DNA of 27,934 nucleotides from Methanocella sp. (GTDB lineage: Archaea; Thermoproteota; Bathyarchaeia; Bathyarchaeales; Bathycorpusculaceae): assembly GCA_050261115.1 (NCBI GenBank), contig JBLNCY010000025.1, positions 1-27,934 of the forward strand. Direction: 5' to 3'. Within the stretch, counting starts at the first letter, position 1. Every line of letters starts with the position of its first letter. A program made the position numbers and the translations under genes. The notes beneath the pieces are model-generated. The model did no database searches. It was not told the origin of the DNA and worked only from the letters and a program-made list of their open reading frames with translations. This document shows, piece by piece, positions 8,205-18,326 of this stretch.

Positions 8205-9743
8205 CTATGTTGAATTAGCGGTTTTTTTATGCTTTCTCAAGAGCACTATACAAGCCAAAGAGATGGATACAACCGAGACGATTACGGCCGTCACAAGCAA
8301 GTTTGACAAGGATTTGTTTTCCTCAATTGTGAAACTGACTGTTTCTGAACTACCCTCATTGCCATATTCGTCAATAGCATAGATTGTGATATTATGTGTA
8401 CCAAGCGACAAATCAGTGAGGGTTAGATTGCCCGATATGGTTTCATTGTTATTTTCGTCTAAACTATAGCCAATCCATGAAACCGGTTTGTTAAGGACAA
8501 AATCTACACTTACATTTCTAATCGAATAGGTAACGCTTTCTGGATTGATAATTTCGATAGTTGGCATTATAAGCCAATCGGGAATCACTTCCTCAACTGC
8601 GGAAAGATTAACTGGATTTATGAGGGGATACCTGTCGAGATGTGTAGAGTCTAAGTAGAAAGGCGAGTCACCTACACCATCGTTGTTGTTATCCTCTCCT
8701 TGATAGGTGTTCCAATAATTACCTTCTATGCCATTGTCCAAATAGTCTGTAATATTGGACATAACCATTGTCCACATTTGATAATACCGATTGTCCACAA
8801 AGTTGTTATGGACTAAGAAGCTAAGGTTGCCATATGGATTTATGATAGCGTTACGTGAGTTTATAGTCCACTCATTATTGGCAATATAGTTCGCGTACAT
8901 TATACTATCTGCACTTGGAGAAATACCTATTCGACAATAAGTGACATTATTCAACATAGCCTTGTTGCCATAACCGATTAAAATTAAACCATCCCCAAAG
9001 TGGTCTAAAACATTTTTGCACAAAACATTATTGTTACCATTAACTTTAAACGCACCATACTGTGCATCAACGCAGAAATTACTATAAAAGTAGCTTTCGT
9101 CTGAGACTGCAGAAAAAGAACCCCCGAATGTATTGAAAGATACCGTGTTATATTGACCAGCGAAATTAACGTCTCCATTGCTAACTTTATTTAATGTAAA
9201 GTTGCAATGATTTCCAGCAATATTTATGGGTCTTGATGATAATGTATTGTTTACTATTTTGTTATTAAACCCCAAAACTGTTAGAGGAGCTGATATGAAG
9301 TTGCTCTCTATTTTGTTATTGTTTCCAGTAATGTTAATGTCACCGCCTGTAGTTGAAATTGTGAGACCAGAAAGTACAAAATTATCAGCGTAAACAGCCA
9401 TAGCTCTGTCATACCAAATTGCTCTGTATATGTCTGGAAATTCTGGGTACAAGGGTTCATCATGTTTTTCAGAATTCAATTTTATTTTCGTTGTTTCAAC
9501 ATTTTCACCTATTAATGATATAGACTTGGTTATGCTAAGCTCATTTTCAGTATAAATTCCGCTTCTAACATAAACGGTGCCTCCGTTGGTAGCATGGTTT
9601 ATGGCTGATTGGATAGTAGCAAAGTCGTCTGGAACAATTATTGTTTTACTTTGGGCTTTGACGAATATGGGTTGGGCCATAACTAAAGATGATATGAATA
9701 ATACAGCAAGCAGTAAAGTCAAGGTTTTCCCGATTCTGCCCAT
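8205..9743 (-). CDS. Secreted right-handed beta-helix (NosD/CASH-like) surface protein with Ig-like domain and C-terminal TM anchor
   Basis: TIIVPDDFATIQSAIN..G.TVYVRSGIY.E start, Asn-rich repeats, GNYW..Y.G.D.N.DGVGD.P motif, Ig-like YSLD..G.HNITIYA.D..GN segment, then TM and RKHKK. Likely start is ATG 9743 (MGRIG); the ORF track starts at 9767. Confidence 0.88.
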   Translation of the reverse strand: MGRIGKTLTLLLAVLFISSLVMAQPIFVKAQSKTIIVPDDFATIQSAINHATNGGTVYVRSGIYTENELSITKSISLIGENVETTKIKLNSEKHDEPLYPEFPDIYRAIWYDRAMAVYADNFVLSGLTISTTGGDINITGNNNKIESNFISAPLTVLGFNNKIVNNTLSSRPINIAGNHCNFTLNKVSNGDVNFAGQYNTVSFNTFGGSFSAVSDESYFYSNFCVDAQYGAFKVNGNNNVLCKNVLDHFGDGLILIGYGNKAMLNNVTYCRIGISPSADSIMYANYIANNEWTINSRNAIINPYGNLSFLVHNNFVDNRYYQMWTMVMSNITDYLDNGIEGNYWNTYQGEDNNNDGVGDSPFYLDSTHLDRYPLINPVNLSAVEEVIPDWLIMPTIEIINPESVTYSIRNVSVDFVLNKPVSWIGYSLDENNNETISGNLTLTDLSLGTHNITIYAIDEYGNEGSSETVSFTIEENKSLSNLLVTAVIVSVVSISLACIVLLRKHKKTANST

Positions 9744-9778
9744 ACCACCAAAGGCAAATAGTAGCAATTAATAGTTTA

Positions 9779-10615
9779 CTACAAACTGGGTATGGTACAA
9801 CTCATCGCTGGAAGATGTCCTTTCTTTAAGTTAACGGTTTTTTGATGCCTACTATAAAGCAATATAGCGGTAATAACAACCGCTGTAGCAATCAGAACTG
9901 TAGCTAAAACTATTGAGGTTGGGGCAGGATGTGTTTCTGGTTGATGTGCACTCGTATTTATGGTTGGCATTGGCGAACTCGAAGTATGAACGGTTGGAGA
10001 TGGTGTAGGTGAAGCAGAACTTACTGGTATGGTTACTATTTGGGTGCTGCTCCAATCGCTTTCAGTACCATTGAAAGTCCAGGAGTTAATTATGGGGTAT
10101 CTATGAACGTAGCCTATTAATGCCTGAACTTGAAACTCAATCTCTGAACCATAAGGGATGCCTGATGGGAAAAGCTGGTCTAATGGGTAACTTGCTATTG
10201 TTGAATGACCGGCAGACTGGCTTAGGTATCCATCTGATAGATGGGTAATGAATGCCCAATTTCCTTCTGATTGTTTCATTCTAATATTGTACATCACGCT
10301 TACAGTTTGACCCGTATTGTATGGGTCGCTTGAATTATATGGGATAGTATATGGTGCAAAGGCTTGATTTTTAATGGAAAATTCAAACGTCTTATTCTCG
10401 ACATAGCCCTGTACTACCCGACTATTGCCGTACTGGTCAGTAATTGCGGTAGGAGTTGGAGCATAATATGAGTTATCTGCATACTTCACGGTGAATTCCG
10501 GTACTGCTGGTTTAGGTATTGTTTGGGCGTTGGTAGGCTTAGCAACAATCAAAGTTAGACATGACAAAACGATAATGAAAGTTAGGGATAACGCCTGAGT
10601 TTCTATTCTACCCAT
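9779..10615 (-). CDS. Secreted, C-terminally anchored hypothetical protein
   Basis: Signal peptide, PKPAVPEFTV motif after the cleavage site, FQVQALIG..G.ESDWS motif, Pro/Thr/Ser linker, then TM and RHQKT. Likely start is ATG 10615; the ORF track starts at 10633. Confidence 0.85.
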   Translation of the reverse strand: MGRIETQALSLTFIIVLSCLTLIVAKPTNAQTIPKPAVPEFTVKYADNSYYAPTPTAITDQYGNSRVVQGYVENKTFEFSIKNQAFAPYTIPYNSSDPYNTGQTVSVMYNIRMKQSEGNWAFITHLSDGYLSQSAGHSTIASYPLDQLFPSGIPYGSEIEFQVQALIGYVHRYPIINSWTFNGTESDWSSTQIVTIPVSSASPTPSPTVHTSSSPMPTINTSAHQPETHPAPTSIVLATVLIATAVVITAILLYSRHQKTVNLKKGHLPAMSCTIPSL

Positions 10616-10876
10616 GATAGGTAATAGACACATAAATGGTTATAACGTTAACTTAGCAGTATGAATGCTGTGAGATAGGTTTTCTTCACGCCAAACCCTG
10701 CTAAGTTTTAGTTACCACTTATTCGTTTGGTTTATTTTTAAAACCTTGATTTTCTTGCAAACTATACTCATTTTAAGCGTAATGTTTTCAATAAGTAAAG
10801 TTCCATACAAATCAGGGCTTAAACCGATGAATCTGAATCTGCAATGATGGAAAAATTTACCAGTTAAGTAGACTTG

Positions 10877-11330: not shown

Positions 11331-11657
11331 ATGTCCAGCGACGAAGGTTACATACCGCTTCTATCCGAGTCGGAAATCAAAGATGGCGAAAAGAAACTTG
11401 TCAGCGCCGAGGGCAAACAAGTCCTATTCATCAAGCACAAGAATAAGCTCTATGTTATTGACGATAGGTGTCCTCATATGGGCTGCAAGTTCTCGGGCGG
11501 CACCATAGCGGACGACATGGTGATTTGCCCGTGCCATGACTGGCGATTTAGCCTAGAAACAGGCGAATACGAAAACGACCCCGGTTATGCCTTGACGTTT
11601 TATCCTTTTAAAGTTAAGGATGGGAAGGTGTGGGTTAAGTTAGACGAGGACTTTTAG
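11331..11657 (+). CDS. Rieske [2Fe-2S] ferredoxin
   Basis: CPHMG and CPCHDWRFSLETG Rieske motifs. TATA-like TTTTAAG about 25 nt upstream, consistent with a leaderless transcript. Confidence 0.93.
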   Translation: MSSDEGYIPLLSESEIKDGEKKLVSAEGKQVLFIKHKNKLYVIDDRCPHMGCKFSGGTIADDMVICPCHDWRFSLETGEYENDPGYALTFYPFKVKDGKVWVKLDEDF

Positions 11658-12580
11658 CTCTCAGGGCAGGTTACGGTTTTAGGTTTATACTTGTAGGCTT
11701 TGCAGAATTCCCAGAAGGCCTCTGCTGGTTTTAGCATCGGCTTTTTAGGCCGCGCCATGTATAGTTGGCGGCCGCCTGAAATACCCATGATAGGCACCAC
11801 CGTCACCAAGCCCGCCGCCTGAGCTTTAGAAGCAGCAAGCGAAGAAACCACACTAACGCCTCTGCCCTCAGACACAGCCGTAATCACCGACGAGGTGCTG
11901 CCAACCTCCAAGGCAATATCCTCAAACGAGGCATTATGTGCCTCAAGCAGCTTCTCGATTTCCAAACGGGTCCCCGAGGTCTCCTCACGCACTACCACTG
12001 GATACTTTGCGGCCTCTTCAAGTCTAACCGATTTACTCCGGGCTAACTCGTGATTACACGCTACGATTAATACCAACTGGTCTTCGCCGATGGGGAGAAA
12101 ATCAAATTTTTCCTCAAACCCCTCCCTGGTTCCCACAGCTGCAAAATCAACGTCATCTATCTGCAAAGAAGACAAGCTGCTGAGGCTGTCTTGGGCTTTG
12201 ATTTTGAACTTGACGCCGGGATTCTTTTTATGGAACTCCGCCATCAAGCCCGGTAGTATGTATTCTTCGGGAATGGTGCTTGCCGCAATAGAGATGGTTC
12301 CTTGGAGGGTGCGGTTGATTTGGGATATTTTGGCTTTGGCGTCGGTTGCTTGACGGAGCATTTTTTCAGCCGCTTCCTTTAGAATCGCGCCCGCGTCCGT
12401 GACGATGACGCCATTAGCTGATCTCTTGAATAGTTCAGCGCCAAAAAAGGCCTCGAGTGCGGCTATGTGGTGGCTGACGGTGCCTTGGCTGGTCTTTAGC
12501 TCTTTGGCGGCTATTGAAAAGCTATGTGTTCGTGCAACAGTCAGGAAAGTGTTCAGGTAATCAAATCGTATTGTCTCCAT
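11654..12580 (-). CDS. LysR-type transcriptional regulator (CysL-like, selenium-metabolism-associated subgroup)
   Basis: HTH SFSIAAKELKTSQGTVSHHIAALE..FG..LF.R, plus ASTIPEEYILP and REETSGTR typical of the CysL-like substrate domain. Likely start is ATG 12580; the ORF track starts at 12598. Confidence 0.92.
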   Translation of the reverse strand: METIRFDYLNTFLTVARTHSFSIAAKELKTSQGTVSHHIAALEAFFGAELFKRSANGVIVTDAGAILKEAAEKMLRQATDAKAKISQINRTLQGTISIAASTIPEEYILPGLMAEFHKKNPGVKFKIKAQDSLSSLSSLQIDDVDFAAVGTREGFEEKFDFLPIGEDQLVLIVACNHELARSKSVRLEEAAKYPVVVREETSGTRLEIEKLLEAHNASFEDIALEVGSTSSVITAVSEGRGVSVVSSLAASKAQAAGLVTVVPIMGISGGRQLYMARPKKPMLKPAEAFWEFCKAYKYKPKTVTCPES

Positions 12581-12647
12581 ACCGTTATTGTCCCACAACG
12601 TGTTTAGTCTAAGTGCCCCGTTTATATATTATTCCTTATACGAATCC

Positions 12648-12669
12648 TTTAATATTCGCTTTTTTAATA
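12648..12669 (+). promoter_or_regulatory. TATA box TTTTTTAATA preceded by the 10-mer TTTAATATTC (putative operator)
   Basis: TATA ends 32 nt upstream of the dsrE-like ATG. The same two elements recur at 13308-13336. Confidence 0.5.
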
Positions 12670-12700
12670 ACTACTATTAACCATTCAGGTTTGAACACAC

Positions 12701-13051
12701 ATGGCAACATTCACAATAATCATACTCGAAGCCCCATACGCCAAAGAACGCGCACTAACTGCCCTACGCTTCGCATGGACCGCAGACCTAGAAGGACACA
12801 AAGTACGCATCTGGCTATTCGAAAACGGCGTCTACCTCGCCAAAAAAAGCCAAAAACCCGCCCAAGGCCTAACTAACTACGGCCAAATGCTTGAGGACAT
12901 GATCAAAGGCGGCGTAGAAGTAAAATCCTGTGTAGTATGCGCAGATGCACGCGGCTTAACCCAGGCAGACCTATTTGATGGGGTCAAACTTGCTACCGTG
13001 CATGACTTAATTGAATGGACGATAGACAGCGATAAAGTCCTAACGTTTTAG
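12701..13051 (+). CDS. DsrE/DsrF/TusD-family sulfur-relay protein
   Basis: APY..E...ALR, LFENGVY and CVVCADARG (conserved Cys in C..RG), with C-terminal SDKVLTF. Confidence 0.92.
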   Translation: MATFTIIILEAPYAKERALTALRFAWTADLEGHKVRIWLFENGVYLAKKSQKPAQGLTNYGQMLEDMIKGGVEVKSCVVCADARGLTQADLFDGVKLATVHDLIEWTIDSDKVLTF

Positions 13052-13061
13052 TGACCACCCT

Positions 13062-13286
13062 ATGAGTCTTGAAAAAATCGACGTAAAAGGCAAAATGTGC
13101 CCTCTACCCGTGGCGTTCACAAAGCGGAAACTCGAATCAATGGCGACTGGGCAGTTGTTGGAGGTTATCGGTGAAGGCGAAGCAGAATTTGATAATATTC
13201 AGCGCTGGGCAAAAAATAACGGTCACAGCGTGGTGGAGGCCTCCAAGTCAGACGGCGAATTCAGGATTCTGATTAAAAAAGCATAA
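13062..13286 (+). CDS. TusA/SirA/YedF-family sulfur carrier
   Basis: IDVKGKMCPLP (CPxP motif), 74 aa, ending ILIKK. Confidence 0.93.
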   Translation: MSLEKIDVKGKMCPLPVAFTKRKLESMATGQLLEVIGEGEAEFDNIQRWAKNNGHSVVEASKSDGEFRILIKKA

Positions 13287-13307
13287 ACTAGAGTAACTAT
13301 CAATTTT

Positions 13308-13336
13308 TTTAATATTCAAATAAACATTTTTTAATA
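13308..13336 (+). promoter_or_regulatory. Second TTTAATATTC plus TTTTTTAATA promoter element
   Basis: Same 10-mer and TATA box as at 12648-12669, upstream of the reductase gene. Confidence 0.5.
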
Positions 13337-13363
13337 GCGGTAGCTGTCTCCGTTACAACGGCA

Positions 13364-14665
13364 GTGAAAAATATGTCTGAAAACTATGTTGAACTGTGGA
13401 AAAGCATCGGAATAGACATAGAAAAACACGACCACCTACTAAACGCCCTAGGACAATTCTATAGCAGCGTCTACTTAACCCAGAAGAATCGCCCTAAAAA
13501 GATGGATTACTTTGACTTTGTCGTCTCAGAAATCCATGGGCTCCGCATCAAAGAGCTAAACGACCAACGCAAAGAAGGAAAAAAAGTCATAGGCGCCTTC
13601 TGCGTCTATGCTCCTGAAGAATTGGCTTATGCCGCAGGCGCCTCTATGGTGGGCTTGTGTGGCGGCGCGGACTTTTCTGTTCCAGAAGCAGAAACAGTTC
13701 TACCTCGTAGCCTCTGTCCCCTCATCAAATCCTTCTACGGTTTCAAACTCAGCAAGACTTGCCCCTATTTCCAAGTGAGCGACTTAGTGGTAGGCGAAAC
13801 CACCTGCGATGGCAAAAAGAAAGTCTATGAACTCTTAAACGAGCTTGTTCCAACATACGTGTTAGAGATCCCACATAAACCTGACACGCAGCAAGGCAAA
13901 GAGTTCTGGCTAAAAGAACTTGAAGCCTTCAAAGCCAAACTCGAGGAGCTTACAGGAAACAAAATAACGGCTGAGAAGCTAAAAGAATCCATAGAGCTAA
14001 TTAACAATAAGCGCAAAGCCCTAAAACGCCTCTCAGACCTCAGAGCAAATTCTCCCTCTCCAATCAGCGGCTTAGACGCTCTGTTAATCTACCAGATTAG
14101 CTTCAACGATGATCCCAAACGCTTTACCGCAAAAGTGAACGAATTATGCGATGAACTCGAAGAGCGGGTACGAAACGGCGTCGGAGTTGCACCCAAAGAT
14201 GCCCCACGACTGCTTGTCTCGGGCTGTCCGATGGCGATTCCAAACTGGAAAGTTCACAGCATCGCTCAATCAGTAGGCGCAACAATAGTCGCTGAGGAAA
14301 GCTGTGTCGGCACACGCTTATTCATGGACTTGGTAGAACCCAAAGGAGACCGCATCGATGACCTGTTATGGGCTATAGTGGAGAAATACAGCAAGATTCC
14401 CTGTGCATGCTTCACCCCCAATGAGCGGCGCATAAAGAGCGTAACTGACCTCGCTAAGCAATTCAAAGCGGATGGTGTAATTTACTATACGCTCCAGAAC
14501 TGCCATGACTATAATGTGGAAGCAGTCAAGGTTGATCGTGCACTCAAAGCTCAAGAGGTACCGATGCTGAAAATCGAAACCGACTATTCCATGGGGGACG
14601 CTCCACAGATTCAAACACGCCTAGAAGCCTTCCTTGAGATAATCGCGGGTAAAAAACAACCTTAA
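13364..14665 (+). CDS. 2-hydroxyacyl-CoA dehydratase (HgdB/FldB) family protein, double-cubane-cluster reductase (DCCP) type
   Basis: FDFVVSEIHGLRIKEL, AFCVYAPEEL, GLCGG, LCPLIKS, ETTCDGKKK, SGCP, EESCVG, PCACFTPN, QNCHDY and IETDYS..D..Q..TRLEAFLE. The start may be ATG 13373. Confidence 0.88.
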   Translation: MKNMSENYVELWKSIGIDIEKHDHLLNALGQFYSSVYLTQKNRPKKMDYFDFVVSEIHGLRIKELNDQRKEGKKVIGAFCVYAPEELAYAAGASMVGLCGGADFSVPEAETVLPRSLCPLIKSFYGFKLSKTCPYFQVSDLVVGETTCDGKKKVYELLNELVPTYVLEIPHKPDTQQGKEFWLKELEAFKAKLEELTGNKITAEKLKESIELINNKRKALKRLSDLRANSPSPISGLDALLIYQISFNDDPKRFTAKVNELCDELEERVRNGVGVAPKDAPRLLVSGCPMAIPNWKVHSIAQSVGATIVAEESCVGTRLFMDLVEPKGDRIDDLLWAIVEKYSKIPCACFTPNERRIKSVTDLAKQFKADGVIYYTLQNCHDYNVEAVKVDRALKAQEVPMLKIETDYSMGDAPQIQTRLEAFLEIIAGKKQP

Positions 14666-14737
14666 CCAGCTTCTACCCATTTTTAGATTATACCTTTTTA
14701 TTTATTCCCAGATTAAGTCTAACATGGAGCGTCCTGT

Positions 14738-15757
14738 ATGAGTTACCGTTTAACCAAAGCTGTTCCGGTCCATGGCTGCAGCTGTAAACTGCCCCAATAC
14801 CAACTGGATAAGCTGCTAGATCAAGCGGGCATGACCGAAGAGTTTGGACCCGACGTGCTCGCAGGCCCATGGGAAAATAGCAGTGTTGTCAAAGTAGCTG
14901 ACGACATAGCTATCCTGAATACGCTGGACTTTTTTACGCCAATGGTTGACGAACCCGAAATTCAAGGCAGAATTGCTGGGAGCAACGTAACAAGCGATAT
15001 CTACACGTTGGGCGTAACCAAAATCGCAAGTGTACTCACGATTATGGCTTTCCCCGAGAAAATGCCCACCGAGATAGCGGTCGGTATGCTTAAGGGGTTT
15101 GGTGATTTCTGCCGCGAAATGGATGCGCCCGTGGTGGGTGGACACACTATTCGTAATCCTTGGCCAATTATTGGAGGCGCCGCTACTGGAGTGGGTAAGC
15201 CTGAGAGTATTGTTTATACTAAAGGCGCTAAACCAGGCGACCGCCTGTTTCTAACTAAACCCCTTGGCATCGCTCCAGCTATGGCGGCGTATCGACTGCG
15301 CAAGGACGAGGCGGATTGCGAGTTACTTGAAGACATACCTAAAGACCTCATAGATACCGCTGTTGACAGCGCCATAAACGGCATGATAACCTCCAATAAG
15401 CCAGTGGCTGAAGTAATGCAAAAAGTCCCCGTTCATGCCGCCACAGACGTCACCGGTTTTGGCTTGAAAGGGCATGCAGCTAACATGGCCATGCTCAGCA
15501 GGGTAGACATAGTGATTGACACGCTCTGGGTGATCAAGGGTACCCCGCAATTAGCAGACGTATTTGGCTACCCACTTTTGACTGGCGAATCCAAAGAGAC
15601 AGCAGGCGGCATACTGATGGCAGTAGCCAAAGAGCACAGCAATCAACTGCAAAGTGAGCTAGATAAACGGCACATTCGATTCTGTGAAGTCGGCTACGTC
15701 AAAGAGGGTGTAGGAAACGTTACTGTCCTGAAAGATGCAAAAGTGGTAGAGGCATAG
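14738..15757 (+). CDS. selD: Selenide, water dikinase (selenophosphate synthetase), Cys form
   Basis: RLT...HGCSCKL (catalytic Cys14/Lys17), DFFTPMVD.P...GRIA..N..SDIY, GGHT, AKPGD.L.LTKPLG, AATDVTGFGL.GH and ETAGG.L. Confidence 0.92.
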   Translation: MSYRLTKAVPVHGCSCKLPQYQLDKLLDQAGMTEEFGPDVLAGPWENSSVVKVADDIAILNTLDFFTPMVDEPEIQGRIAGSNVTSDIYTLGVTKIASVLTIMAFPEKMPTEIAVGMLKGFGDFCREMDAPVVGGHTIRNPWPIIGGAATGVGKPESIVYTKGAKPGDRLFLTKPLGIAPAMAAYRLRKDEADCELLEDIPKDLIDTAVDSAINGMITSNKPVAEVMQKVPVHAATDVTGFGLKGHAANMAMLSRVDIVIDTLWVIKGTPQLADVFGYPLLTGESKETAGGILMAVAKEHSNQLQSELDKRHIRFCEVGYVKEGVGNVTVLKDAKVVEA

Positions 15758-17222: not shown

Positions 17223-17534
17223 CTATGCGAGAACTTGTACTGGTTCAAACTCTATGATGTCGGTTTTCTCGTCTGTTTTCTTTAATGGGAAGACGACTGG
17301 TGCCTTATCTGAGATAATCATTGTCAGTTTGGAATGAATCCGACCGACTTCATCAATACGATGTGTGACGATGTCTTTGAGTTCATCCATGGTCTTTGCT
17401 GCAACGTTGACAATGATGTCATAGACTCCCCATAGCTTGTAGGCTTCTTCTACCCCATCTAACTCTTTGAGCGCTTTTAGAACCTGCTTTTCTGAACCTA
17501 TTTCGGTATTTAGAAGGACATAGGCTGTTGGCAT
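17223..17534 (-). CDS. Stand-alone Lrp/AsnC ligand-binding (RAM) domain protein with C-terminal extension
   Basis: AYVLLNTEIGSE..V...L...GVEEA....GVYDII. No HTH. Start is ATG 17534 or TTG 17549. Confidence 0.88.
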   Translation of the reverse strand: MPTAYVLLNTEIGSEKQVLKALKELDGVEEAYKLWGVYDIIVNVAAKTMDELKDIVTHRIDEVGRIHSKLTMIISDKAPVVFPLKKTDEKTDIIEFEPVQVLA

Positions 17535-17560
17535 AACTTTTTTCTCCAAAATTTAATGGC

Positions 17561-18000: not shown

Positions 18001-18237
18001 TTACTTGTCTTCGACCACAATCATGGTGAGCGTCGAACGGACTTTGTCGAGTCTGCGTATGCGCCAAGTAACGATTTCTTTGAGTTTATCCATCGTGTCT
18101 GCTTTTACTCTTGCTACGATGTCATAAACTCCATACACGGCGGATGCTTCCTCAACGCCTTCAACCTTCTTCAGCTCCTTTAAAACATCTGATTCAGAGC
18201 CTATCTCGGTATTAATCAACACAAACGCTGTAGGCAT
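18001..18237 (-). CDS. Stand-alone Lrp/AsnC RAM domain protein
   Basis: MPTAFVLINTEIGSE...GVEEA..VYGVYDIVARV......L...V..RIR.L..VRSTLTMIV. Start at ATG 18237 chosen by alignment to the paralogues. Confidence 0.92.
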   Translation of the reverse strand: MPTAFVLINTEIGSESDVLKELKKVEGVEEASAVYGVYDIVARVKADTMDKLKEIVTWRIRRLDKVRSTLTMIVVEDK

Positions 18238-18326
18238 ATCTATCCTCAAAGTAAAGAATGGTGCCGTGACATTAAAAATGTTTCCTAGCAAATAGCTAAG
18301 CTCTAAGATGATAAGTGCCTAAGCCG

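Follow-up and report, generated by a model that had tools for sequence, protein, structure and literature searches.

A conserved dsrE-tusA-DCCP-selD gene cluster with an orphan SelD in Bathyarchaeia that lack selenocysteine decoding, and its possible role in selenium supply

We analyzed a stretch of 27,934 nucleotides, here called the window, from a genome deposited as Methanocella sp. and placed by GTDB among the Bathycorpusculaceae of the Bathyarchaeia (GenBank assembly GCA_050261115.1; contig JBLNCY010000025.1, positions 1 to 27,934 of the forward strand), which carries a gene cluster around the selenophosphate synthetase gene selD. Four genes follow one another on the forward strand: a gene for a DsrE-family protein of 116 aa (12701-13051; Pfam PF02635, 88.8 bits), a gene for a TusA-family protein of 74 aa (13062-13286; Pfam PF01206, 75.2 bits), a gene for a double-cubane cluster protein (DCCP; 13364-14665), which matched HGD-D and the model NF040772 at 504.9 bits (cut-off 350), and selD (14738-15757), which matched NF010705 at 348.2 bits (cut-off 291) and TIGR00476 at 238.7 bits (cut-off 125). 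A LysR regulator with the Pfam domains LysR_substrate and HTH_1 is encoded on the reverse strand (11654-12598) and is separated from dsrE by a divergent control region (12599-12700). A preliminary description of this DNA had reported four co-oriented genes divergent from a LysR gene, and all five open reading frames (ORFs) were found where it had placed them, with families confirmed by Pfam and NCBIfam. Moreover, as it had reported, none of the four genes contains an in-frame TGA, and no stop codon interrupts any of the five ORFs. The same description had found the window to be free of genes for selenocysteine (Sec) use, SelU, and YqeB/YqeC, and such Pfam families were not seen among the other ORFs of the window, which also encodes two tRNAs, for Ala and Gly.

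The SelD of the window carries the motif HGCSCKL at residues 12-18, which conforms to the catalytic signature G-[C/U]-x-C-K, has Cys14 and Lys17 as its catalytic residues, and makes the protein a Cys form that also passes two equivalog cut-offs. For comparison, human SPS1 has Thr at the position of the catalytic Cys. The SelD-related sulfur family NF038049 was matched at 35.2 bits, against a cut-off of 250. Known consumers of selenophosphate were sought throughout the genome, which comprises 2.15 Mb in 66 contigs and is 94.85% complete. ARAGORN found no tRNA-Sec among the 42 tRNAs of the genome, and the best matches to the Rfam tRNA-Sec model (42, 39, and 30 bits; threshold 47) were tRNA-Ser, tRNA-Lys, and tRNA-Leu. 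SepSecS had no match in the genome, the best PSTK score there was 19.6 bits against a cut-off of 290.5, and tblastn with the PSTK::aSelB fusion and SepSecS of a distant Bathyarchaeon (G103) returned general GTPase domains only. SelU (YbbB/MnmH, including the split archaeal form) had no match at an E value of 0.001 in the genome or in 37 relatives; the SelU model gave a match in M. jannaschii, and the control genomes show that the models detect archaeal forms. There was likewise no match in the genome to YqeB (TIGR03309), YqeC (TIGR03172), or the xanthine-dehydrogenase family (PF02738). TIGR04348, which we take to be the selenosugar synthase SenB, reached at best 42.5 bits (cut-off 300), and the FGE-sulfatase domain PF03781, presumably the hallmark of SenA, had no match in the genome. 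SelA, YedE, YedF, DUF3343, and XdhC queries taken from related loci returned, by tblastn against the genome, only NifS-like genes and two activases. A SelD-like match on contig C20 was set aside, as the protein is a general member of the AIR-synthase family with its closest affinities to HypE and ThiL. The genome-wide search that the preliminary description had proposed thus revealed no Sec, SelU, YqeB/YqeC, or SenA/SenB-type pathway. We conclude that SelD is an orphan in this genome, in that the known consumer pathways are absent.

A DCCP-based scan of species-representative genomes gave 80 loci, each of which was scored with the window's proteins. Thirty-four are Bathyarchaeia loci with a DCCP at least 73% identical to that of the window (the frameshifted L057 was placed here on 73% identity), and the 46 more distant loci, at 53-67% identity, belong to bacteria, Asgard archaea, and Nitrososphaerota. 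Among the Bathyarchaeia loci, SelD adjoins DCCP in 33 of 34, and all five genes occur in 31, of which 30 keep the order and orientation of the window; of the three incomplete loci, two still have SelD (L028 and L041), and both of these are cut by a contig end. Because the five genes recur together in 31/34 Bathyarchaeia loci, the arrangement is far beyond chance. The preliminary description had made its case hinge in part on linkage of these genes in other genomes, and a neighborhood survey found that linkage to be conserved.

Linkage is looser in the distant loci, where SelD lies within 6 kb in 8/46 and a related LysR in 8/46, and 36 of 44 further DCCP genomes hold a SelD while 8 have none above cut-off. 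Pfam and NCBIfam annotation of twelve neighborhoods indicated what keeps company with DCCP elsewhere. In Dehalococcoidia, a LysR of the selenium metabolism-associated family LysR_Se (263-283 bits, above cut-off) is divergent from DCCP-activase-(DsrE)-SelD, and a Thermovenabulum locus combines activase-DCCP with SelD, a Sec-lyase-like gene, and LysR_Se (330 bits). The deltaproteobacterial locus L072 reads DUF3343-Carb_kinase-like-SelD-YedF-YedE-TusA-DCCP; the Chloroflexia locus L070 has DCCP-activase beside NifS, SelD, and SelA; and in the distant Bathyarchaeon G103, selD (with TGA), DCCP, and activase genes are divergent from a PSTK::aSelB fusion and SepSecS. We conclude that DCCP belongs to a selenium-handling neighborhood in several phyla, Sec-decoding organisms included.

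Other features of these neighborhoods were also recorded. A Carb_kinase/YjeF-C-like gene of about 290 aa recurs by DUF3343 ("Se/S carrier") and selD or DCCP (L037:3799-5180, L094:3744-5140, L072:1085-2532, and L053:1395-2270); its spread takes in Bathyarchaeia, a deltaproteobacterium, and Nitrososphaerota, a term search of the available text of Lin et al. 2015 (PMC5322559) returned no mention of it, and its product may also take part in selenium or sulfur handling. Two Nitrososphaerota loci from genomes without SelD (L052 and L053) have DCCP-activase near TusA, the Carb_kinase-like gene, and a maturation factor that resembles XdhC (212 bits to NF045664, below its cut-off), which suggests a sulfur counterpart of the same module. 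Small ORFs by selD in L021 and L022 were considered as new partners and rejected, as they are not similar to each other. Locus L038 (DATHCJ010000016.1) is labeled Limnocylindrales (Chloroflexota), yet it carries a Bathyarchaeia-type cluster at 76-83% identity in a genome with archaeal SepSecS and tRNA-Sec; the contig or bin is probably mislabeled.

The cluster is found both in relatives that decode Sec and in relatives that do not. SepSecS was present in 9 of the 32 cluster-bearing Bathyarchaeia genomes and was not found in the other 23, and a tRNA-Sec above threshold was detected in exactly the same 9, adjoining SepSecS, such that the two markers agreed in all 32. The 23 others, which include a closed chromosome (G157, locus L032), gave only an ordinary tRNA at about 41-42 bits, as did the window's genome, and YqeB was found in none of the 32. 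The orphan state of SelD is therefore common to 23/32 cluster-bearing relatives. The SelD of the operon was the only SelD above cut-off in 32 of 32 genomes, and because the operon thus provides the sole SelD of nine Sec-decoding genomes, this SelD must be the working enzyme that feeds selenocysteine synthesis there. In two of the Sec decoders (L094 and L101), selD has a TGA at the position matching Cys14 of the window. The SelD motif, the CxxC of DsrE, the CPxP of TusA, and seven Cys residues of DCCP are kept in the Sec-decoding and the Sec-less groups alike. We conclude that the SelD of the window probably forms selenophosphate, on the indirect ground that its orthologue is the sole SelD above cut-off in nine Sec-decoding relatives.

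Genes for PSTK::aSelB, SepSecS, and tRNA-Sec are clustered in the Sec-decoding relatives and lie next to selD in G103, G037, and G110. The fusion gene was also recorded by SepSecS, tRNA-Sec, and a TGA-containing selD at L017:10699-14200, L015:9735-13228, and L016:4346-7862. Sec decoding and a PSTK-SelB fusion have been reported in Bathyarchaeota (Mukai et al., as cited in PMC9499178), such that the preliminary description, which had named Methanococcales, Methanopyrus, and Asgard groups, gave an incomplete list of archaeal Sec users. The PSTK::aSelB of the relatives is of the reported kind, whereas the window's genome and 23/32 operon-bearing relatives lack all of this machinery. An even sample of 151 Bathyarchaeia genomes was also searched for SelD, which was found in 10: three have a TGA in selD together with SepSecS, one (G064) has YqeB, and the other six belong to the window's genus. 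Among the sampled members of that genus, the high-scoring DCCP type occurs only in the window's genome (G000) and in G102.

A tree was built from concatenated SelD and DCCP (29 rows), with loci lacking full-length matches for both genes left out. Genes in the long-read-derived loci L049, L057, L061, L044, L047, and L032 are split into adjacent frames; because LysR, DsrE, DCCP, and SelD are affected alike across the cluster, this looks like indel sequencing error and not gene decay, and these loci were left out of the tree and of the rate estimates. On this quick gene tree, the Sec-decoding genomes are basal and interspersed, with at least three changes of Sec status, and Sec is thus most simply ancestral and then lost. 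The window sits in a well-supported clade of 10 members, all of them Sec-less. Pairwise ratios of nonsynonymous to synonymous substitution (dN/dS) for SelD, rough because dS is saturated, were 0.058, 0.055, and 0.025 in three Sec-less groups and 0.051 in the Sec-decoding group, and those for DCCP, DsrE, TusA, LysR, and a Rieske ferredoxin described below were 0.05-0.12. We conclude that the constraint on SelD is not visibly relaxed in the Sec-less clades.

DCCP aligns end to end, over residues 10-427, with the solved DCCP of Carboxydothermus hydrogenoformans (6eno/7yyl) at 520 bits. Its cysteines at 80, 99, 118, 148, 314, 347, and 380 (spacing X18, X18, X29, X165, X32, and X32) are kept in every locus that was readable in full and align with the Cys residues of the solved protein. 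The spacing printed in a preprint (X19, X18-19, X29, X166-170, X32-34, and X32) is not matched as a strict pattern, and the alignment to the solved structure settled the assignment. Judged from its homologues, translation of DCCP probably starts at Met4 (13373). The window's protein thus resembles that of Carboxydothermus in its full-length match, its conserved cluster Cys residues, and its score above the NF040772 cut-off, and it differs in that its gene is fixed between tusA and selD and has no gene for the partner ATPase beside it; a paralogue may use the same ATPase.

No activase gene was found among the ORFs of the window, such that DCCP has no cognate ATPase there. The only two activase genes of the genome lie on another contig (C55), directly after a DCCP paralogue whose NF040772 score of 336.7 bits narrowly misses the cut-off (paralogue and activases, G000:C55:11609-14402). 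One of the two activases resembles BzdQ and the other BcrD, which suggests a BzdQ/BcrD-type pair, and the tandem pair is present in 36/37 related genomes. A third, cluster-encoded activase occurs only in the basal genomes L094 and L101; one further genome has a third elsewhere. The distant G103 also has an activase gene in its cluster. The solved DCCP requires an ATP-dependent reductase, and if the selD-linked DCCP is ATP driven in this clade, the activase pair of the paralogue must be borrowed. The tandem pair also occurs in family members without SelD, and for that reason the C55 paralogue and its pair look like a separate three-gene reductase system.

The two small proteins encoded ahead of DCCP are candidate carriers. 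DsrE has the motif C77-x-x-C80, which is kept in 29 of the 29 loci that are readable at that position, and the bacterial DsrE homologues of L081 and L090 also carry CxxC (GICGVCC). A Sec codon suspected in the L090 homologue is not present. PMC13188914 lists selenoproteins of a "DsrE-like UxxC" family, whose motif may correspond to that of the window's DsrE. In TusA, Cys13 lies in a CP[LMI]P motif and is invariant across an alignment of 22 sequences. The best NCBIfam matches of TusA were to YedF models, below cut-off (44.9 bits against 79 and 39.9 bits against 110), and DsrE matched no YedF model. YedF is a TusA-DsrE fusion, whereas here DsrE and TusA are encoded by two separate genes, DsrE first. 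The idea that the two are a split YedF was rejected, as the scores are below cut-off and there was no tblastn match to the true YedF of L072 (E value, 1e-4). We propose TusA as a candidate persulfide or perselenide carrier and DsrE as a candidate selenium or sulfur carrier or redox partner.

The LysR regulator matched NF040786, "selenium metabolism-associated LysR," best among the NCBIfam models, at 237.5 bits; this falls short of the cut-off of 250, and the gene stands beside selenium genes. The next best model scored 150.9 bits and the CysB type 94 bits, and the CysL-like identity given in the preliminary description therefore gave way to NF040786. The basal orthologue in L094 reaches 254.4 bits, and bacterial LysR proteins adjoining DCCP reach 263-330 bits. 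LysR homologues in most loci align from residue 7, and the true start is probably Met7, at about 12580. LysR is divergent from dsrE-tusA-dccp-selD in 30/31 complete loci. Toward LysR, the control region contains a TATA-like A/T-rich element, tttatata (12621-12628); a dyad, TATTC-N7-TAATA (12653-12669), lies within a block about 30 nt upstream of the dsrE ATG that is conserved across an alignment of 20 loci. The dyad fits the LysR T-N11-A box; it occurs once in the window against 0.13 expected, with one or more matches in 10 of 100 shuffles, and is weak by itself. We conclude that the regulator is, by sequence, closest to the LysR_Se/HrsM-like kind and that the dyad is a putative LysR operator.

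A small Rieske [2Fe-2S] ferredoxin of 108 aa, which was not listed in the preliminary description, is encoded on the other side of LysR (11331-11657, forward strand; Pfam Rieske, 68.3 bits). Its translation shows the ligands CPH...CPCH, and the gene is convergent with LysR and overlaps its 3' end. A homologue is present in 28/34 Bathyarchaeia cluster loci; in G038 the gene immediately precedes dsrE-tusA-selD and shares their orientation, and in L037 it follows selD. We conclude that the Rieske ferredoxin is a conserved companion of the cluster.

The stretch was contained in 18 sequencing runs from 11 studies of anaerobic digesters, sludge, soil, and biofilm, one of which may be its source. Six of the runs are RNA libraries, and contigs from four of them, each from a different study, take in all five genes with at least 95% identity, with three contigs bridging the DCCP-selD junction. 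In three runs, RNA-library contigs were sparse from 13116 to 13399, across the remainder of tusA plus the spacer; a contig gap is uninformative on operon structure. These data are consistent with transcription of the five genes and are not proof of it.

The gene identities, the conservation of the operon, and its provision of the sole SelD in Sec-decoding relatives are established here, and they bear on two alternatives offered by the preliminary description, in which either the reductase and carriers feed SelD or SelD supplies selenium to the cluster of the reductase. As the same operon serves Sec decoders and its parts keep company with Sec genes and selenium carriers in other phyla, it appears to act upstream of selenophosphate, and the first alternative is favored for that reason. 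We give about an even chance to the reading that dsrE-tusA-dccp-selD is a selenium-supply operon for SelD under LysR_Se-type control. In such a supply line, LysR would respond to a selenium signal through the conserved dyad at 12653-12669, selenium would be held on the carrier cysteines (Cys13 of TusA and C77xxC80 of DsrE), DCCP would take it to the level of selenide with low-potential electrons delivered by the ATP-dependent activase encoded on contig C55, and SelD, through Cys14 and Lys17, would turn selenide into selenophosphate. The window's lineage has lost Sec and is also without genes for selenouridine, the selenium-dependent molybdenum hydroxylases, and selenoneine, yet its operon remains intact under strong constraint, so some further consumer of its selenophosphate must exist. 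Either these archaea have an undescribed use of selenium, or the function of the operon is not yet understood. That selenophosphate in the Sec-less Bathyarchaeia feeds an undescribed use, beyond selenocysteine, selenouridine, the YqeB/YqeC selenium-molybdenum cofactor, and selenoneine-type metabolites, seems to us possible, at somewhat less than an even chance; the most concrete candidate sinks are selenium in the double-cubane cluster of the adjacent reductase and a selenium ligand on a tungsten or molybdenum cofactor. What stands of the preliminary description is a module that is real, conserved, and linked to selenium, with an orphan SelD. Its picture of a self-contained, nonclassical route does not stand, as the same operon provides the only SelD of nine Sec-decoding relatives and a related cluster lies beside PSTK::aSelB and SepSecS in G103, nor does the novelty of a selenium-bearing cluster.

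Several observations weigh against a supply line built on all of these parts. No dedicated activase goes with the selD-linked DCCP of this clade, which leaves the tandem pair of the paralogue, and selenium as the substrate of DCCP is something that we infer. Homologues of YedE, YedF, and DUF3343 were not found in the window's genome by tblastn. Within the window's genus, G038 has Rieske-dsrE-tusA-selD without DCCP or LysR, and in G127, G102, G133, and G094 an intact selD is surrounded by unrelated genes, dsrE, tusA, and a DCCP of this type being absent from its vicinity; SelD is thus kept where the rest of the module is gone, which argues that parts of the module are dispensable. Conversely, all four Nitrososphaerota genomes with the closest outside DCCPs (62-65% identity) are without SelD, which argues that DCCPs of this type also function without SelD. 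Sec losses were counted on a gene tree with a long-branch root and not on a species tree, saturation of dS leaves the dN/dS ratios rough, and the RNA-library contigs may hold DNA carry-over and cannot show a single transcript.

One rival to the supply line reverses the direction of service: SelD would serve the reductase, selenophosphate giving selenium to the double-cubane cofactor, perhaps at its bridging position, and DCCP would be the sink in the Sec-less lineages. This rival draws on the adjacency of DCCP and SelD in 33/34 Bathyarchaeia loci, on the retention of DCCP in 23 of 23 Sec-less cluster-bearing genomes, with all seven Cys residues where readable, on the need of a constrained orphan SelD for a sink, and on a published co-occurrence (955/970) by authors who had already put the idea in print (Haft and Gwadz 2022), such that this second alternative of the preliminary description is not new. 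It is weakened by the SelD-free Nitrososphaerota (4/4), by the 8/44 DCCP genomes without SelD above cut-off, and by four genus members that keep a constrained SelD without this DCCP type, and the adjacency in Sec-decoding relatives is explained without it. We regard it as unlikely. A different sink, a Mo/W-pterin enzyme (such as one of the AOR family) that would receive a selenium ligand without YqeB and YqeC, as a variant of the selenium-dependent molybdenum hydroxylase trait, would account for the genes that follow selD in about 20 cluster loci, where a ModE-like regulator, ModA, ModB, an ABC ATPase, and MobB occur within 6 kb (directly after selD in 10). It would also suit G103, in which a ferredoxin gene and an AOR-family gene come after selD-DCCP-activase on the same strand, and L052 and L053, with an XdhC-like factor near TusA and DCCP-activase. 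Nevertheless, gene order shared among close relatives is weak evidence, the linkage is found equally in Sec-decoding relatives, and Sec-containing Mo/W enzymes could account for it in Sec decoders. In the window's genome, moreover, the ModE-like gene is not on the contig of the cluster, and a search for ModA gave no homologue. The only orphan SelD explained so far, in organisms likewise without Sec or selenouridine systems, did prove to be the selenium-dependent molybdenum hydroxylase trait (Haft and Self 2008, PMC2276186; Zhang et al. 2008, PMC2432076), but YqeB, YqeC, and xanthine-dehydrogenase-family enzymes are absent here, and a Mo/W sink is in our judgment quite improbable.

The cluster might instead handle sulfur in the Sec-less lineages, with DsrE and TusA as persulfide carriers and SelD activating sulfide to thiophosphate or doing another sulfur job. 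DsrE and TusA are classical sulfur-relay families, both are below the cut-offs of the selenium-specific YedF models, and SelD-related enzymes of sulfur metabolism exist in archaea (PMC4210487). The SelD of the window nonetheless exceeds two equivalog cut-offs and is far from the sulfur family NF038049, its orthologues are the sole SelD of Sec decoders, two of them with a catalytic Sec, the regulator is of LysR_Se type, and neither constraint nor key residues change between Sec-less and Sec-decoding clades. SepCysS, the one tRNA-linked sulfur acceptor tried for SelD-made thiophosphate, is absent from the genome. A sulfur role thus also appears quite improbable, marginally more so than a Mo/W sink. 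Very little probability attaches to the view that the operon has no function and is a relic of a Sec trait that was lost recently. Sec is most simply ancestral and lost on the SelD and DCCP tree, and several genus members are already without parts of the cluster; against this, dN/dS of SelD and DCCP within the Sec-less clades is 0.03-0.07 (with saturated dS), not above that of the Sec-decoding ones, and such constraint on SelD makes a relic unlikely. Moreover, all catalytic and ligand residues are kept, 23 genomes in at least three separate groups retain the operon, and contigs from RNA libraries of four studies cover it. Least probable of all is a known selenium pathway that was missed, either in the roughly 5% of the genome that is unassembled or through divergence beyond the reach of the models. 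The genome is 94.85% complete in 66 contigs, and because SepSecS, PSTK::aSelB, and tRNA-Sec are clustered in relatives, one lost contig could remove them all. Yet SepSecS and tRNA-Sec are missing from 23/32 relatives, a closed chromosome among them, the window's 10-member clade is entirely Sec-less, and SelU (0/37) and YqeB (0/32) went undetected by models that find the archaeal forms in control genomes.

Components of this system have been described in bacteria. Lin et al. 2015 (PMC5322559) defined LysR_Se, YedE, YedF, and DUF3343, and an "activase" and a "2-hydroxyglutaryl-CoA dehydratase subunit" both rank among the leading partners in their STRING table, though the available text makes no remark on either. 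Haft and Gwadz 2022 (bioRxiv 10.1101/2022.07.06.499078) built NF040772, reported that 955 of 970 high-scoring DCCPs are in SelD-containing assemblies, and named a selenium-bridged analogue of the 8Fe-9S cluster as a "formal possibility," and PMC10418091 describes DCCP as "provisionally linked to selenium metabolism" and draws DCCP, DCCPR, selD, and selR together. The families in these bacterial neighborhoods are those found here, with LysR_Se by DCCP, SelD, and TusA/DsrE-type carriers, and the published co-occurrence of DCCP with SelD was reproduced in 36/44 genomes. In contrast to them, the cluster reported here is archaeal and compact, has separate DsrE and TusA proteins instead of YedF, is accompanied by a conserved Rieske ferredoxin, and lacks an activase, with YedE and DUF3343 also missing from the genome; most notably, it is retained where all Sec machinery is absent. 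HrsM of Methanococcus is likewise an archaeal LysR of the LysR_Se subfamily, for which selenophosphate sensing has been proposed (PMC5322559). Whereas HrsM switches between Sec and Cys isoenzymes in a Sec-decoding methanogen, the regulator of the window stands beside selenium-activation genes in a genome without selenoproteins, and it scores just under the LysR_Se family cut-off. Lin et al. 2015 list, in the available text, one archaeal orphan SelD, in Methanoplanus petrolearius. Our literature search found no report of an orphan SelD or of a dsrE-tusA-DCCP-selD operon in Bathyarchaeia; supplementary tables of the papers, which were outside the search, could list such genomes.

TiaS, an archaeal marker, is encoded downstream of selD in the window, and the named relatives of DCCP are from Bathyarchaeota/Bathyarchaeia. 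Downstream of TiaS, two small proteins (17223-17549 and 18001-18291, both on the reverse strand) consist of the Lrp/AsnC ligand-binding domain only, without a DNA-binding domain, and neither TiaS nor the AsnC-like genes adjoin the cluster in any of the 80 loci elsewhere. On the other side, two large ORFs of 520 and 284 aa (8205-10633, reverse strand) have signal-like N termini, C-terminal hydrophobic anchors, and no Pfam match, and they probably encode surface proteins; the G+C content of this stretch is 0.37-0.40, lower than the genome value of about 0.47. In other loci, a block with a ModE-N-terminal-like regulator (109 aa) follows selD (L018:3858-7963 in G038, and L031, L036, L038, L057, L061, and L065); in the window's genome, the regulator gene is at G000:C55:34687-34989.

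Neither the link between DCCP and selenium nor the idea of a selenium-bridged cluster is new. What is new is the compact operon in archaea, found in Bathyarchaeia that decode Sec and in others that do not, together with evidence from across the lineage that an orphan SelD is under constraint; such a call needs evidence at the level of the lineage. With these findings, a statistical association between DCCP and SelD becomes a fixed, testable operon of two small carriers, one reductase, and SelD, which could give the double-cubane enzymes their first physiological substrate. An earlier follow-up of an orphan SelD revealed the selenium-molybdenum cofactor trait (PMC2276186). A widespread and abundant group of archaea that has kept SelD after the loss of Sec, apparently several times, offers the cleanest natural experiment for a new use of selenium.

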